From Candidatus Krumholzibacteriia bacterium (GTDB lineage: Bacteria; Krumholzibacteriota; Krumholzibacteriia; JAJRXK01): a stretch of 42,500 nucleotides of DNA. Below, one piece after another: positions 11,461 through 23,445 of the stretch. Every line of letters starts with the position of its first letter. Positions within the stretch are counted from its first letter, which is position 1. Under the pieces are notes generated by a model that saw only the letters and a list, made by a program, of their open reading frames with translations, had not been told where the DNA came from and ran no database searches. The position numbers and the translations under genes are program-made. The DNA is taken from contig JBGPIA010000028.1 in NCBI GenBank assembly GCA_041484665.1, positions 1 to 42,500 of the forward strand. Reading direction: 5' to 3'.

Positions 11461-11657
11461 GCGGGCAGCGGGGGTGTCGGTTGCGTCAGTGCTTCTGAAA
11501 TAGAGGCACGAATCTGGCCCGGCATGGGCGGAAGGTTTCCAGGGGGCGTTGACTGGCAGTCTGGTGCCGGCCCCCTGCCGGTGATAGGATCATGCGGATT
11601 CCCGACACGCCATCGGGCTGGCCACGACGCGCACAACCCATCCACCGAGGTGCCACC

Positions 11658-12488
11658 ATGCGCAATCGAACGCAGTTCCTGTTCTTCCTCCCGCTCGTCT
11701 TCACGCTGCTGGCCATGCCATTCTCGGCCTTGGCGGCGGGGGATATAGTCATTCAGGCTGTGGGCTCTGTGCAGGGCCTCATCCAAGGCGAGGCAGTCGT
11801 GCCCGGCCACCTAAACTGGATTGACGTTTTCAGTTTCTCACATGGGGTCTCGACTCCCATCGGACCCAACGGCCTACCGACCGGTCCGCCGCAGACTTCT
11901 CTGCTGAGTATCATGGGGCGGTTCGACCGCTCCACGGTGAAGCTGTTCACGGCACATTCGACGCAGGAGACATTCTCGAACTTCAGGATGGAATGGGTCC
12001 AAGCAGGGACAGCGCAGACCCTCATCCGATACGAATTGGTCAACGCGCGCCTCATCGACGCTCAAGAATCTGGAAGCGCCGGTGGCGATGTAACTCCGAC
12101 CGTGAGCATGAGCTTTTCCTACTCGAGGATCAATATCACCGATGTGGTCCTGGGCACCACGGTGAGTTACGACTGGAACTCCGTTGCAACCGCGACGCCG
12201 GAGCCGTTGGCAAAGGGGATCTTGCTCCCCCCGGCTCCCAATCCGACGCGTGGCGAGACCGAGTTCCGCTTCTCGCTGCCCACCGGGAGCAACGCCGAGC
12301 TGACGCTCTTCGATCTGCGCGGTCGCGTGGTGCGCGAGCTGCATCGCGGTTGGACCTCGGCCGAGCCCGTGGTCGCCGTCTGGGATGGCACCGATGACCA
12401 AGGTATCAAGGTCGCACAGGGTCTCTACGTGGCGCGACTGACCTATCCGGGCACGGTGGTCACGCAGCGCATCGCTCTCGTGCGCTAA
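11658..12488 (+). CDS. Secreted Hcp (T6SS tube)-like domain protein with C-terminal FlgD-Ig domain
   Basis: GAGGT RBS and a Sec signal peptide. Hcp signature IQGEA..PGHLNWIDVFSFSHGV..FDRSTVKLF..YELVNARL..VSMSFSYSRI, then PNP..FDLRGRVVR..WDGTD..QRIALVR. Confidence 0.85.
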   Translation: MRNRTQFLFFLPLVFTLLAMPFSALAAGDIVIQAVGSVQGLIQGEAVVPGHLNWIDVFSFSHGVSTPIGPNGLPTGPPQTSLLSIMGRFDRSTVKLFTAHSTQETFSNFRMEWVQAGTAQTLIRYELVNARLIDAQESGSAGGDVTPTVSMSFSYSRINITDVVLGTTVSYDWNSVATATPEPLAKGILLPPAPNPTRGETEFRFSLPTGSNAELTLFDLRGRVVRELHRGWTSAEPVVAVWDGTDDQGIKVAQGLYVARLTYPGTVVTQRIALVR

Positions 12489-12542: not shown

Positions 12543-13155
12543 GTATCTACGGTTTTTCCAGCGCTGCCGACTGCTCGAGCACCTGCACACTGACCTCGTC
12601 GTGGCCAGCCCCCCCGCTGCGCCTGACGCCGTGGGCATGCGCGCGGGGCCGCCTGTCTCACCCAACTCACGCACGCCGGCGGTGCCCTCGTCTCGACGAG
12701 CGCCGGGAGGCGGTTGCGTCGACCCTCATGACCGCCGCGACCGCCAATCGCGACCGCCCACTCGATCACGGAGCTGCGCGATCTCTAGCGGGACCGGGGG
12801 GTGTCACGTGGGCCGTGACGTCACGAACCGGTCACGCCGCCGGCGGGGCCCGCCCCTCGGCCGGCTCCTCGAACGGATCCCTGCCGCCTGTCATTGCCAG
12901 GTGGCGCAGGATGCCGTCCACCACGCCCTCGTCCTGGATCACCGCCACGATCCGCATCTCCACCCACACCGCGGACATAGCAGCGGGTCCGCCTCGTAGA
13001 TCCGCCGCAGCAGCCGCGCCCAGCTGCACCGGCGCGCGCGCTGCTCGGCGCTCTGCGCTGGCGTGGTGTTCCGGGGAGCCGCTGCCGCCGGTGGTGCGGC
13101 AGCACGGCTCGCCTCGCTGCGCCGCCGCGCCCCCCGACTGCGGTTGGCGTACCAG
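12543..13155 (-). mobile_element. IS91-family remnant 3, 3' part (interrupted at RYYG by the recombinase element)
   Basis: GWYANRSRG..WARLLRRIYEADPLLCPRCG..EMRIVAVIQDEGVVDGILRHL..RAPPAA*. The downstream non-coding region is near-identical to 8860-9075. Confidence 0.85.
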
Positions 13156-13156
13156 C

Positions 13157-13459
13157 CGTAGTACCCACAGGACTGCAACCTCGAGCGGGGTCGCGGGCGG
13201 CACGGTCGTCATCACGCATCCTTGCCATCCGTACGCCGGCCGGGAGGTCTGTGTTGTCCGCGCCGATCGCCGCCGCGGAGATCTCCTGAGCCTGGTGGTC
13301 CGGCTGCCCGATGGAAGCACCCAGTGCATGCCCGTGGCCTGGACGGATCGGGCCGCGCCCGATTCTCACGTGATCGGCGCTTCACCACGAGCGCAGCTCT
13401 CGGGTCTTGCCCTGCTCGAGGTCCTGGACTGGCTCGACGGGTTGCATAGCGGGTCTTGA
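13157..13459 (+). CDS. DUF5372 (Y4bD/Y4pK)-like protein, 3' part; 5' part lies at 15920-15982
   Basis: VVITHPCHPYAGREV..VVRLPDGSTQCMPVAWTD. No start codon with an RBS inside the element's left end; in frame with the ATG at 15920 across the circle junction. Confidence 0.7.
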   Translation, partial: RSTHRTATSSGVAGGTVVITHPCHPYAGREVCVVRADRRRGDLLSLVVRLPDGSTQCMPVAWTDRAAPDSHVIGASPRAQLSGLALLEVLDWLDGLHSGS

Positions 13460-13513
13460 CGGGAGCGGACGGGATGGAGCACTCTGGGCATGTATTCACA
13501 GGGTCAGATCAAC

Positions 13514-13870
13514 ATGGCTCGAACACCGTCACGTCGAAGGCTGCCCAGCAAGCGCGCACGGGAGCGCCTGCTCGCCCAGCTGCCCGATCTGCGGCAGATC
13601 CTGCGCGGCTCGCTGGTCACGCGCTACCGCCGCTGCGGCCGCTCCAATTGCCACTGTGCCGCGCCGCAGGATCCTGGTCATGGGCCGGCCTACTACCTGA
13701 TGGTGACGACGGGCCCGGGCGAGACGGTGCAGATCTACGTCCCGGCCCGCATCAAGCCCGACGTCGAGGCCTGGCTCGAGAATTTCCAGCGCGTGCGCGA
13801 CACGCTGGAGCAGATCTCGTCGATCAACCGGGAGCTGCTGCGCCAGGGGCGGCTCTTCGAGGAGGACTGA
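13514..13870 (+). CDS. DUF6788-family protein (Cys/His zinc-binding motif)
   Basis: LRGSLVTRYRRCGRSNCHC...GHGPAYYL signature; alternative ATG at 13490. Confidence 0.8.
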   Translation: MARTPSRRRLPSKRARERLLAQLPDLRQILRGSLVTRYRRCGRSNCHCAAPQDPGHGPAYYLMVTTGPGETVQIYVPARIKPDVEAWLENFQRVRDTLEQISSINRELLRQGRLFEED

Positions 13871-13904
13871 GCTGCGCGCCACCGCGGGCAGGCCGACGGA
13901 CAGC

Positions 13905-14120
13905 GTGGCCCTACCGGCGCCCGGTTGGCAGCCGCAGCCGTGTCCGCCACGGACGGATCGCGCTGCAGGGCCGCTGCCGGAGCTGGACCGAACGAGGATC
14001 GAGGAGATCCTCTGCGCGATGCTGATCTCCTCGGTACAAGACGTTCAATCGGGTGTCGTGCGTGAGCCAAAGAGGAAGTATGGCCGTGGGAAAGATCGGC
14101 TGGCAGCACCTGAATCGTAA
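13905..14120 (+). CDS. Small hypothetical protein overlapping the recombinase start
   Basis: 71-aa ORF with amphipathic LPELDRTRIEEILCAMLISS filling the gap between DUF6788 and the recombinase. Confidence 0.35.
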   Translation: MALPAPGWQPQPCPPRTDRAAGPLPELDRTRIEEILCAMLISSVQDVQSGVVREPKRKYGRGKDRLAAPES

Positions 14121-15966
14121 GGCGTGCCTGTATGTGCGCCAGTCCTCGCTGGCCCAGGTTACGCACCACCGGGAGAGCACGGCCCGCCAGTACAACCTGC
14201 GCGAGCGGGCGGTCGCGCTGGGGTGGGCGGCCGAACAGGTCGAGGTGATCGACGAGGATCAGGGGCTCTCGGGCGCGAGCGCGGTGGGTCGCGAAGGCTT
14301 CCAGCGCTTGGTCTCCGATGTGGCGCTGGGCCAGGTGGGGGCGGTGCTGGGGCTGGAGGTCAGCCGGCTGGCCCGCTCGTGCGCGGATTGGTACCGGCTG
14401 CTGGAGGTAGCGGCCCTGGCCGGGACCTTGATCGTCGACGAGGAGGGCGTCTACGACCCCAATCACTACAACGACCGGCTGTTGCTGGGGCTCAAGGGGA
14501 CCCTCAGCGAGGCGGAGTTGCACTTTCTCAAGCAGCGCATGATCGGTGGCCGCCGCAACAAGGCGTTGCGCGGCGAGTATCGCATTCGTCTGCCGGTGGG
14601 CTACGTGTGGGAGAAGGAAGCCGGGATCCGGATGGATCCCGACGAGCGCGTGCGCGACACGGTCGCGCTCTTCTTCCGCTGCTTCGCACGGCTGGGCACG
14701 GCGGCGGCGGTGGCCCGCCACTTCGAGCAGCTGCGCCAGCCGTTTCCGCGCCGCGACGGCTGGGGGAGTCCCGACGTGGCCGTCAGCTGGGGGCCGTTGA
14801 GCTGGTCGCGAGCGGCGGAGATACTGCGCAGTCCGATCTACGCCGGAGTCTATGCCTACGCACGGAAGGCGTCGGCGGAGATGGATGCGGAGGATCCGTG
14901 TGCGGGGGGTCGGATCTTGATTCCCGGCGCGCACCCTGGCTATATCACAGTCGAGCAGTACGAGCGCAACCTGGCGCGTCTGGCGGGCAACCGGAATCTC
15001 TACGGCGGCATGCGGACCAAGGGAAGCCCACGCGAGGGACACAGCCTGCTGCAGGGCATCGTGCTGTGCGGGCGGTGCGGGCGCCGGATGAGTGTGATCT
15101 ACCGCCGCGACGTACGAATGTCGTCGCCCGATCACGCGCCGACTCTGCCAGCAGGTCCACGCGCGGCACGTCGAGCCTCTGGTGGAGGGGCAACTGCTGG
15201 GGACCCTCTCGCGCGAGCAGTTGGAGCTGGCGGTGGGAGCGCTGGAGCGGCTGGCCGAGCGGGGCCGGGAGATCGACCGCCAGTGGCACAAGCGTCTTGA
15301 AAAGCTCGCTACGAGGCGGAGCGGGCAGCGCGGCGCTACCACCAGGTGGAGCCGGAGAACCGGCTGGTCGCGCGCACGCTGGAGGCGGAGTGGAACGCGC
15401 GGCTGGAGGAGGTGGCGCAGCTGGAGAAGGAGTACGCACAGCTGCGGGAGCGTCCGCCCTTGGCGCTGACCGGCGAGCAGCGTAGCCGGATCGTTTCACT
15501 GGCGAGCGATCTGCCACGGCTGTGGCGGGCGCCAACGACACGCCACAGCCAGCGCAAGGAATTGGTGCGGCTGCTGGTCGAAGACGTCACGGTGCACAAC
15601 ACGGACATCCCGTGGGCGACCGCGGTGGCGATCCGTTGGCGGACGGGGTTGGTCGAACGCCATACGGTGGAGCGTGTCCTGCCGCACCCGCAGACCACAC
15701 CAAAGGCGGCGGTCGATCGGATCCGGGAGCTGTACCGGGTGCAGACGGATCGAGAGATCGCTCACCTCCTCAACGGCGAGGGCTACCGCACCGGATACGG
15801 GAAGCCCTTCACGGAGTCGAGTGTAGGCAGCATCCGGCTGCAGCGGGGGCTGCGGAAGACCGCGGCCGACAAGGCGCCGGGTGGGCCGTTGGACCGAAGC
15901 ACAAGTAGGGAGGAAGTCGATGAGTCGCGGGGAGCAGCCACGCCCCCACCCCGCTCGGACTCGTAG
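14080..15966 (+). pseudogene. Large serine recombinase (resolvase + recombinase + Zn ribbon + coiled coil) with two frameshifts
   Basis: GAGGA RBS, LYVRQSS catalytic Ser, DEDQGLSG, EVSRLARS and CGRCG. Frameshift near 15110 (resumes YECRR..LCQQVH) and near 15303 (one A missing in GAAAAG; resumes ARYEAERAARRY..EPENRLVARTLEAEWN). Confidence 0.85.
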
Positions 15967-15982
15967 TCCTGAGGGTACTATC
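15920..15982 (+). CDS. N-terminal 21 codons (MSRGEQPRPHPARTRSPEGTI) of the attP-split DUF5372-like gene
   Basis: GGGAGG RBS at 15908-15913 and ATG at 15920; in frame with 13157 on circularisation. Confidence 0.6.
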
Positions 15983-15989
15983 CGTAGTA

Positions 15990-16480
15990 GCGGACCATGT
16001 GCTGCCGCGGTGCGGGGATCTGCTGCACCAGCCGGTGGATCAGCTCCAGGGGGTCCAGTTGCAGGTCGCGTTGGCCCGTGCGCGGGTCGATGGGCGTCTG
16101 CACCACCACGGCCTGCGCGGTCTGCCGTACCGCATCCAGGCGCAGCGGCGCCCTCGTCAGATAGCGCGCGACGTGCTCCAGGCTCGCCGTATCGTCGGGC
16201 AACAGGGCGGGACCCACGTGCACCGAGAAGCCCGGGTGTACCTAGCCCAGCAGGTTCTGGTGGAACTCCTCCGACAACCGCTGCTCCCGCCGCAGCGCGG
16301 CCAGCACCAACCGGCGGAAGAGCTCGGTCAGGGCGGCAGCGTCCCAGTGACCCATCCGCTCGAAGTGGCCATCGGGTGCGAAGGCGCCGTCGGTGACGAT
16401 GGCGTGCACGTGAGGATGGAAGTTGGCGGCGTAGCTGCCAAAGGTCTGCAGGGCGGCCACCGTCCCCACCGACAGCGATG
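15990..16480 (-). mobile_element. IS91-family remnant 3, 5' part
   Basis: QTFGSYAANFHPHVHAIVTDGAF, in-frame stop at 16242, VARYLTRAPLRLD and LELIHRLVQQIPAPRQHMVRYYG. Confidence 0.85.
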
Positions 16481-17301: not shown

Positions 17302-21321
<4,020 letters not shown>

Positions 21322-22307: not shown

Positions 22308-23445
22308 GGGGTTTGTATCCGCCCCGGCCCGAACTCCGGCCGAACTCCCGCCGCGCGCCGCGGCACCTTACGCTGATGCGCGTGCCCGCAACAACGCTCG
22401 CTCGCCCTGGCCACGGCCCGGTGGGGCCGCTTCGGCGATGCGGGGCACGCCATCTCACACCTGCAGTGCCTCGCGGCTTGCGACCGGCGGCTCTCCATCC
22501 CCCCCGCGGGCACACCTCCACGCCGGCTCCCCCACGAACTACAGGCGAGCCCAGCAGGATGCCCCCGGTGAGCGGCGGTCATGGCCGGTCACGTCAGGCC
22601 GCCGGCGGGGCCCGCCCCTCGGCCGGCTCCTCGAACGGATCCCTGCCGCCTGTCATTGCCAGGTGGCGCAGGATGCGGTCGACGACGCCTTCTTCCTGGA
22701 TCACTGCGACGATCCGCATCTCCACGCCGCAGCGCGGACGGAGTAGCGGGACCGCTTCGTAGATCCGCCGCAGCAGCCGTGCCCAGCTGCGCCGGCGGGC
22801 GCGCTGCTCGGGACGATCGAACCGGATCGCTGCGTCTTCGCTCTGCGCACCGCTCGCGGCCAGCGCCGCCAGAGCGGCGGCGTCACCGGTGAGCTCCGCA
22901 CGCCCCTCAGCCGCCCGCCTTCGCCGCGCGCCGCGGCTGCGGTTGGCGTACCAGGCGAGGGTGCGCGCCATGTGTTGCCGCGGCGCGGGGATCTGCTGCA
23001 CGAGCCGGTGGATCAGTTCCAGGGGCGAAAGCTGCAGGTCGCGCTGGCCCGTGCGCGGATCCACCGGGGTGGGCACGATCACCGCCTCGGCCACCGGGCG
23101 CAGCGCGTCTTGCCGCAGCGGAGAGCGGGCGATGGTCCGGGCAAGCTGCTCCAGACCGGCGCGGTCGTCGGGCAGCATCGGCGGGCCGACGTGGACGGAG
23201 AAGCCCGAGTGCACCCAGGCCAACAGCCGCGCTGGGTGCCCGCCGTCAGACGTTGCTCGCGTCGCAAGGCCGCGAGCACCAGCCGGCAGAAGAGCTCGGT
23301 CAGGGCGATGGCGGCCCATCGACCCATCCGCTCGAAGCGGCCAGCACCGGCGAAGGCGCCATCGGTGACGATCGCGTGGACGTGAGGATGGGAATTGGCA
23401 GCAGAGCTGCCGAAGGTCTGCAGAGCGGCAATCGTGCCCACCGAG
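22308..23445 (-). mobile_element. IS91-family remnant 6 (frameshifted tnp 22594-23445 plus end region)
   Basis: QTFGSSAANSHPHVHAIVTDG, WVHSGFSVHVGP, LELIHRLVQQIPAPRQHM and WARLLRRIYE..RAPPAA*; truncated end motif GATACAAACCCC at 22308-22319. Confidence 0.85.

Follow-up and report, generated by a model that had tools for sequence, protein, structure and literature searches.

A DUF5372 gene divided by the attachment site of its own large serine recombinase element

The assembly of a Candidatus Krumholzibacteriia bacterium (GCA_041484665.1) includes contig JBGPIA010000028.1, of which positions 1 to 42,500 on the forward strand, hereafter the window, were analysed as one stretch of DNA. Between positions 13156 and 15989, open reading frames (ORFs) and Pfam matches reveal a 2.8-kb large serine recombinase (LSR) element carrying three genes, all on the plus strand. 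The first of these (13157-13459) is a gene body of 100 codons and a stop codon that encodes a DUF5372 domain (PF17342) and has no start codon inside the element. Its product matches the family with 34 bits (cut-off 25) over residues 19-96 of the 100-residue body, and with 33.8 bits in a six-frame search. The middle, accessory gene (13490-13870) encodes a DUF6788 protein (PF20586; 98.2 bits, cut-off 27.2), a position that, according to the annotations of relatives, is taken by a helix-turn-helix gene in other subfamilies. The third is an LSR pseudogene (14080-15966) with matches to Resolvase (72 bits), Recombinase (27.6 bits) and Zn_ribbon_recom (21.9 bits, cut-off 25.3), the last of which falls below its cut-off because a frameshift cuts the zinc ribbon. 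Nevertheless, the Resolvase domain, the recombinase domain and the zinc ribbon expected of an LSR occur together in one protein, which aligns at 42% identity over 14092-15855 with the intact enzymes of three related loci (L041, L037 and L017).

The element interrupts a minus-strand pseudogene of an IS91-like (Y2) transposase, and the break falls directly after the conserved YYG motif. The left flank (12939-13155) encodes the C-terminal part of the transposase, and its ORF continues the one at 15978-16223; the right flank (15990-16223) holds the upstream part of the interrupted gene, with a Y2_Tnp match (PF04986; E 7e-10) across 15978-16223. A DNA search of the bacterium's own genome uncovered paralogues in which the left flank is joined directly to the right flank (C39:9208-9332, C6:8630-8731 and window 22922-23023), and because these paralogous empty IS91-like sites exist in the same genome, both ends of the element are fixed. 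The paralogue at 22922-23023 is a second IS91-like copy whose target site is intact and which is 89-93% identical to the flanks of the element.

An 8-bp core, CCGTAGTA, is present at 13156-13163 and again at 15982-15989. Specifically, attL (13126-13187) consists of a target arm, the crossover dinucleotide CC (13156-13157) within the first copy of the core, and an inner arm of the element, and attR (15952-16013) consists of the other inner arm, the crossover CC (15982-15983) within the second copy, and a target arm. In the attP rebuilt from these sites, the 30-bp inner arms are mirror-related at 23 of 30 positions around the central CC, compared with a chance expectation of about 7.5. To judge by its letters, such a dyad around a non-palindromic dinucleotide has the look of an LSR attP, and the locus thereby combines the precise insertion, shared core and dyad attP that characterize an LSR element. 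The genome contains a single copy. A solo remnant of about 40 bp from a related right end lies on contig C6 (14474-14581; L003:1490-1550) and is 89% identical to window 15942-16049. It adjoins another IS91-like fragment, has no recombinase sequence upstream, and is probably the scar of an older insertion followed by deletion.

The first gene of the element is divided between the two ends. Between 13157 and the THPxHP motif of DUF5372 there is no in-frame ATG, GTG or TTG, and the in-frame codons of this kind upstream of the motif lie in the flank only, at 12728, 12815, 12911, 13091 and 13094. At the opposite end, a GGGAGG ribosome-binding site (15908-15913) precedes, with a spacer of 6 nucleotides, an ATG at 15920 that opens a leader on the plus strand (15920-15982), composed of the ATG and 20 codons and ending on the first crossover base. 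In the integrated state this leader frame runs out into the flank. Core base 1 is the last base of the leader codon at 15980-15982, and core bases 2-4 make up the codon after it as well as the DUF5372 codon at 13157-13159. Because the same core bases fill the same codons at both ends, the phases of the leader and of DUF5372 are identical, and the joined reading runs through 21 + 100 = 121 codons without a stop, with the crossover between codons 21 and 22. The first-pass annotation of this DNA, which was made from the letters alone, had claimed that the DUF5372 ORF lacks a start of its own, that the right end carries an orphan ribosome site and ATG, and that a continuous 121-residue protein results when the ends are joined through the core; each of these claims is borne out. 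Both here and in 14 relatives, the attP crossover falls within one of the element's own coding sequences. One other arrangement, a fusion of DUF5372 to the recombinase, was considered and rejected, as the leader is read in a different frame from the LSR in the window and starts at or after the LSR stop codon in the relatives.

The recombinase gene of this copy has decayed. A three-frame comparison with intact relatives places the departure of the homologous reading from its frame at about 15105-15180 and its return at about 15300-15345. The first lesion is a short deletion between the zinc-ribbon cysteine pairs, and the main frame contains a stop codon at 15298-15300, such that the gene carries two frame changes and a stop. 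Because of the two frameshifts the element is unable to act now, a case that the earlier proposal to assay the joined protein with a repaired recombinase had allowed for. The element is covered by contigs of four sediment metagenome runs that show no difference from it, and because the lesions are identical in all four they are not assembly errors of one data set. Thus, the window copy is a fossil member of its family that is fixed in the sampled populations. Some contigs of these runs skip 2832-2840 nucleotides at this place, which at first sight might pass for excision; the skips have other letters at the joint and represent the paralogous empty IS91 copies. No promoter-like site was found between 12900 and 16200 of the integrated sequence by a scan for a sigma-70-like consensus that may not fit this phylum and that did not extend to the joined sequence. 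A terminator scan, which is little informative for the phylum, returned two terminator-like sites, both inside the LSR gene.

Relatives were collected from plasmids by tblastn (23 records with the window protein and 34 with P0138), from one genome per species, from metagenome contigs (22 loci) and from the phylum of the window, where 4 of 208 genomes, including that of the window, have a DUF5372 match. The tblastn search of plasmids with P0007 gave no match, and neither did a search of genome contigs with the single DUF5372 protein of the window. Intact copies occur in strains such as Mesorhizobium sp. AR02, which has several, and Rhizobium leguminosarum Vaf10 and Vaf-108. Among the resulting 46 loci besides the window are 18 insertions with both ends on the DNA and a readable LSR end; together with the window, these make 19 insertions of 15 distinct elements. 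The crossovers were fixed independently of the DUF5372 frame, either by restoration of the target ORF when the element is removed or by a shared core. Specifically, the interrupted IS66 TnpB was compared with intact TnpB in L027/L028, the motifs of group II intron reverse transcriptases, a ParA motif and the IS91 zinc-finger region were used in the same manner, and the crossovers of L045 and L047 were fixed by the shared core.

In every one of the 15 elements the right end has a ribosome site and a start codon, and the codon-split reading from that start continues across the crossover in the DUF5372 frame. The start codon is ATG in 13 elements and GTG in 2, and it overlaps the LSR stop as ATGA, follows it by up to 32 nucleotides, or precedes it by up to 46. 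The crossover dinucleotide straddles a codon boundary in all 15, and in the window and the IS66 group 19-20 codons separate it from the T of THPxHP downstream. Leaders range from 2 codons in L065, through 3-6 in the IS66, reverse-transcriptase and parA groups, to 21-22 in the group that uses the IS91 YYG site. With leader lengths so different, insertions and deletions have evidently occurred in the leader, yet the frame was kept.

Six different target-site or junction contexts are represented among the 15 elements, and the split layout is common to relatives from several bacterial phyla. The IS91 YYG site is occupied in the window, L045/L044 and L047, and the IS91 zinc-finger site in L065, from the same phylum; parA is the target in L041. 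IS66 tnpB is entered in antisense orientation by L014/L025, L017/L020, L018 and L022 and in sense orientation by L062. The remaining sites are a 'D.D..FD' motif of reverse-transcriptase or DDE genes (L034, L035 and L036/L037) and a reverse-transcriptase 'GIPT' motif (L058 and L060). The first-pass annotation had proposed to examine relatives for conservation of the ribosome site, ATG and frame across the rebuilt attP, and had held that random frame continuity or an internal DUF5372 start would speak against its idea. As described above, these features are kept in all readable elements, continuity of the frame is not random, and none of the relatives has a convincing internal start with a ribosome site. 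Its claim that the gene is whole only on joined ends is therefore supported by an in-frame split design that is conserved across deep divergence.

Two of these loci deserve separate mention. The element that occupies a group II intron reverse-transcriptase motif in L037 is found in L036 (4962-5010 and 7734-7790) in a transposase-like gene with a similar 'D.D..FD' motif, and it seems from the two sites that this recombinase recognises a short DNA motif common to unrelated genes. In another genome of the window's phylum, a solo DUF5372 ORF (L011:204-510; G116:C83; 74 bits) has neither a canonical start nor a downstream recombinase. A CCGTAGT motif lies 66 nucleotides upstream of its domain, with an in-frame TAG inside the motif, and this ORF is possibly the remnant of an element.

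The closest relative, present in the metagenome contigs L045 and L044, has a DUF5372 that is 68% identical to that of the window, an intact LSR of 607 codons, the same IS91 YYG target and the core CCGTAGT. Its LSR stop codon is followed by a GAGGAG site and then by the ATG of a 21-codon leader that joins DUF5372 in frame. The two elements thus have in common a ribosome site, the ATG, a leader of 21 codons and its frame, although the sequence around the ribosome site differs in L045; L047 carries a leader of 22 codons at the same place. The leaders of the window and L045 share 71% nucleotide identity and 10 of 21 residues, with no insertion or deletion, and the ratio of nonsynonymous to synonymous substitution rates (dN/dS) is 0.41 for the body and 0.53, on small counts, for the leader. 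On this comparison the leader resembles a tail under loose constraint, the 3′ half of which also serves as an arm of attP. A family-wide motif some 17 residues before THPxHP falls on the inner attP arm and may be conserved as DNA rather than as protein. At the end of the recombinase gene of L041 (9246-9274), the last LSR codons contain an AGGAGG ribosome site together with the ATG that opens the DUF5372 leader. The C-terminus of the recombinase clade, with the consensus end EVQYEA, is nearly invariant in 53 aligned sequences (alignment columns 862-865), and the overlapping ribosome site and start codon may be what constrains it.

The gene calls of the family are erratic at the N-terminus. In a set of 151 family representatives, many proteins start at a codon for Val, Leu or Met that is located 1-3 residues before THPxHP, and others have long unrelated N-terminal extensions that match the antisense of target genes and are derived from the flank. 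A 'DUF5372 family protein' coding sequence is annotated at only 3 of the 23 matched plasmid places, which is weak evidence given that the table holds no pseudogenes. A gene split in this manner would explain both the erratic starts and the missed calls in DUF5372 annotation.

Structure prediction provides some indication of what the protein might do. The AlphaFold2 model of the window DUF5372 body (mean pLDDT, the model's confidence measure, 85.8; first 10 residues uncertain) is a small SH3/KOW-like barrel followed by helices. Fold searches with this model returned only generic SH3/KOW/Tudor-like barrels (Foldseek best E 0.012; VIA-align best Z 6.4), and for this reason the fold offers no functional lead. 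A sequence search of the PDB found no related chain, the only rows being spurious matches to interleukin-8 at E 0.014 or worse. A complex was modelled from the L045 LSR (607 residues) and its DUF5372 body (100 residues), each supplied as an alignment made for this analysis, and its interface score (ipSAE) is 0.76, versus 0.00 for the best of 3 controls. That mark is attained by 116 of 157 solved complexes, compared with 2 of 215 mismatched pairs, counts that are rough here because such purpose-made alignments were used. At least 72% of contacts are shared among the three runs, and the pLDDT of the partner is at least 69.

The predicted interface comprises LSR residues 327-333, 351-352, 377-393, 463-483, 493-506 and 519-528, and DUF5372 residues 22-26, 50-56 and 69-96. 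In the model, the THPxHP loop and the C-terminal helices of DUF5372 touch three parts of the LSR: the first CxxC of its zinc ribbon, the point where its coiled coil starts, and the conserved block that follows the coiled coil. The attP-encoded N-terminal tail remains outside the interface. This model supports binding of DUF5372 to the LSR at the base of its zinc-ribbon/coiled-coil region. The directionality factor of φC31 (gp3) binds its serine integrase at the base of the same region (PMC5814800). The predicted placement of DUF5372 at the site of the φC31 factor lends support to the earlier suggestion that the protein serves as a directionality factor or integration cofactor.

We hypothesize that the three-gene element (DUF5372, DUF6788 and LSR) would move by recombination between its attP and a conserved motif in the genes of other mobile elements. 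On joined ends, the genes would be ordered accessory gene, LSR, DUF5372, and the DUF5372 start, which follows or overlaps the end of the LSR gene, suggests translational coupling on the LSR transcript. Integration cuts the gene between leader and body and leaves the inserted copy without a start, and synthesis of DUF5372 would be confined to the excised circle or a head-to-tail junction. The protein would bind the base of the zinc-ribbon/coiled-coil region of the LSR and thereby report the state of the element to the enzyme. Most likely, the effect would be to favour integration or to block renewed excision, although the opposite sense is possible. The ends of the element, the frame, the conserved layout and the decay of the LSR are seen directly in the sequence, and binding to the LSR is predicted by the model; formation of the circle, expression from the circle alone and the direction of the effect are what we infer here. 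For the reading as a whole, in which DUF5372 is split by attP, finds a start only on joined ends, is made only from the circle and acts as an LSR-binding reporter of state, we estimate a probability of roughly 0.75.

Several points weigh against this reading. The 15 elements share ancestry and are not 15 independent trials. Assessment was not possible at 28 of the 46 loci besides the window, and no frame mismatch was seen at any of these. These are the solo ORF L011, which lacks an LSR; L015 and L043, which either represent the same locus as L014 or have an unread right end; L016, L019, L021, L023, L024, L038 and L039, in which the LSR is damaged or absent or no right end was located (the first five being Streptomyces, Rhodococcus and Microvirga loci); and L040, L042, L046, L048-L057, L059, L061, L063, L064 and L066, whose contigs end too early. 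Neither an active variant nor a circle joint (15989 to 13156) is present in the contigs of the four sediment runs, which are blind to rare forms; sequence spanning the 15982-to-13157 junction, which the first-pass annotation had proposed to look for, thus did not appear there. A joined form is likewise absent from the 13 proteins that match the L041 protein most closely. The score of the predicted complex is the model's own confidence and not a measurement. Finally, a canonical directionality factor is needed for excision, and hence in the integrated state, so that synthesis from the circle alone does not suit such a factor unless DUF5372 acts in the opposite sense.

The start codons of some relatives also raise a difficulty. 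In-frame GTG, TTG or ATG codons, none with a ribosome site, stand 1-6 codons before the domain in L017/L020, L018, L022 and L036/L037, and weak internal initiation may occur at these codons. In addition, P0272 is a predicted protein of 144 residues in which a ParA-like N-terminal part is joined directly to a DUF5372 body. In this relative of the parA-targeting element, the frame of the target gene reads through into the ORF that lacks a start. Thus, DUF5372 might be an ordinary gene that is translated in the inserted state from an internal Val, Leu or Met codon, from a non-canonical start or by read-in from the flank, with the signals at the right end serving another purpose or none. Many genes of the family are indeed called at the near-domain codons, and the frame in the window is open far into the flank. 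However, the near-domain codons fall on conserved Val/Ile/Leu positions in addition to lacking ribosome sites, and neither the window nor L014/L025 has one. An ordinary gene also leaves unexplained why a strong ribosome site and an in-frame start are kept at the far end of 15 out of 15 elements with leaders of 2-22 codons, and why the frame is open to the very end of the element. We consider this explanation quite improbable. Coincidence in a decayed, GC-rich element fares far worse. The LSR of the window is broken, GC-rich DNA holds long open frames, and a single frame match has a chance of 1 in 3; but ribosome site, ATG, 21-codon length and frame are all retained in the nearest relative whose LSR is intact, and all 14 other elements agree, which makes a chance origin scarcely credible.

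Other alternatives accept the split gene and differ in what follows from it. Instead of a free circle, the relevant joined form could be a tandem of head-to-tail copies or a replicated junction, since the junction sequence is the same as attP, the two cannot be told apart here, and no circle was seen. No tandem occurs among the fetched loci, however, the genome of the window having one copy and each locus elsewhere a single copy, and serine recombinases are established to excise circles between directly repeated attL and attR. The chance that tandems rather than circles are the relevant form is slim in our estimation. Alternatively, DUF5372 could be a canonical excision-promoting directionality factor whose synthesis from the circle alone bars re-entry into the donor site or holds the circle ready for transfer. 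The predicted contact site matches that of the φC31 excision factor, as this proposal would have it. Yet excision itself would then need another source of the factor, and because the circle has three genes and no replication gene, blocking its integration would lose the element. A canonical factor is for these reasons a rather unlikely identity for DUF5372, and we retain as the preferred reading a partner that is made on joined ends and reports that state to the recombinase.

The recombinase clade to which these elements belong is abundant. In a protein search with the L041 enzyme (L041:6722-9271), all 8000 scored candidates have E values of 1e-20 or better. Many of the listed hits reside on contigs of about 3.3-3.7 kb, near the size of one element, which suggests that assemblies break at the element ends or hold the element as a separate unit. 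Elsewhere in the window, and unrelated to the split gene, an ORF of 1339 residues (17302-21321) is rich in FG-GAP/VCBS-like repeats with recurring DYDNDGD and DLDGDLD motifs. Its C-terminal segment is similar to that of a 298-residue ORF at 11592-12488, and both products appear to be secreted.

Genes that are divided by their own attachment sites have precedents. The 'suicidal' tyrosine integrases of the SSV1 type, from archaeal viruses and plasmids, likewise have the recombination site inside the element's own gene, such that integration splits a gene that is whole only in the free form, and a review gives such enzymes as known only in archaea (PMC8371274). In SSV1 the split gene is the tyrosine integrase itself, whereas here the serine recombinase stays whole, the gene that is split encodes a small predicted partner, and integration removes only its ribosome site, start codon and short leader. 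In mycobacteriophage BPs, integration reportedly removes the 3′ end of the repressor gene to give a stable active form, and the recombinase is said to be a tyrosine integrase. By contrast, integration of the window element removes the 5′ start, which should silence DUF5372. The resemblance lies in the integration-dependent immunity of BPs and its relatives, where attP is inside a regulatory gene and the free or integrated state reportedly sets which form of the protein is made (PMC4557955). As its split gene is neither an integrase nor a repressor trimmed at the 3′ end, the window element belongs to neither of these families.

Circularisation is also used elsewhere to join a signal at one end of an element to a gene at the other. 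Lyras and Rood reportedly described in 2000 a promoter on the Tn4451/Tn4453 circle for TnpX, the large serine recombinase of a small transposon-like element. Similarly, Pcir of ICEclc and P3'end of ICEKp1 are end signals that act on the gene at the opposite end only after circularisation (PMC13023037). In those systems a promoter is joined to an intact gene, whereas here the coding sequence is divided and it is the translation start that is joined. With φC31 gp3, DUF5372 has in common that it is a small protein predicted to sit at the base of the zinc-ribbon/coiled-coil region of a recombinase. Unlike known directionality factors, which are made in the integrated state to allow excision, it finds its start only on joined ends, and it has no sequence relation to any solved protein.

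Transposon-like and 'multi-targeting' LSRs that move a minimal element into recurrent sequence motifs have reportedly been described (PMC10083194). The DUF5372 elements differ in aiming at motifs of IS91, IS66 tnpB and group II intron reverse transcriptases, with one aimed at parA, and in carrying a split DUF5372 partner. Literature searches, which covered few subscription journals, found no work on DUF5372, DUF6788, PF17342, PF20586 or y4bD, and none on such a split gene in serine-recombinase elements. What differs from the earlier att-split genes is that the serine recombinase stays whole, that the divided gene is that of its predicted partner, and that the part removed is the translation start. 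To this the window adds a fossil with an unusually long leader, from a subfamily that targets IS91 and carries DUF6788, together with a closely related element that is intact and a model of how DUF5372 contacts the LSR.

How transposon-like LSR elements choose between excision and integration is poorly understood, and a partner that is made only on joined ends would be a very simple answer. More broadly, and tentatively, for we are more inclined to doubt than to accept it, DUF5372 may represent a widespread and undescribed class of state-gated LSR partners, in which placing attP between start and body ties synthesis to topology and lets the enzyme excise in one state and integrate in the other with no outside regulator. 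Because the recombinase clade aims at the genes of other mobile elements, it may also influence how insertion sequences and group II introns turn over. Serine recombinases are in use as genome-engineering tools, and a natural cofactor that sets direction is of practical interest for this reason. If true, the arrangement would constitute a self-contained directionality switch and would provide a new pair of recombinase and cofactor for controlling the direction of DNA integration.

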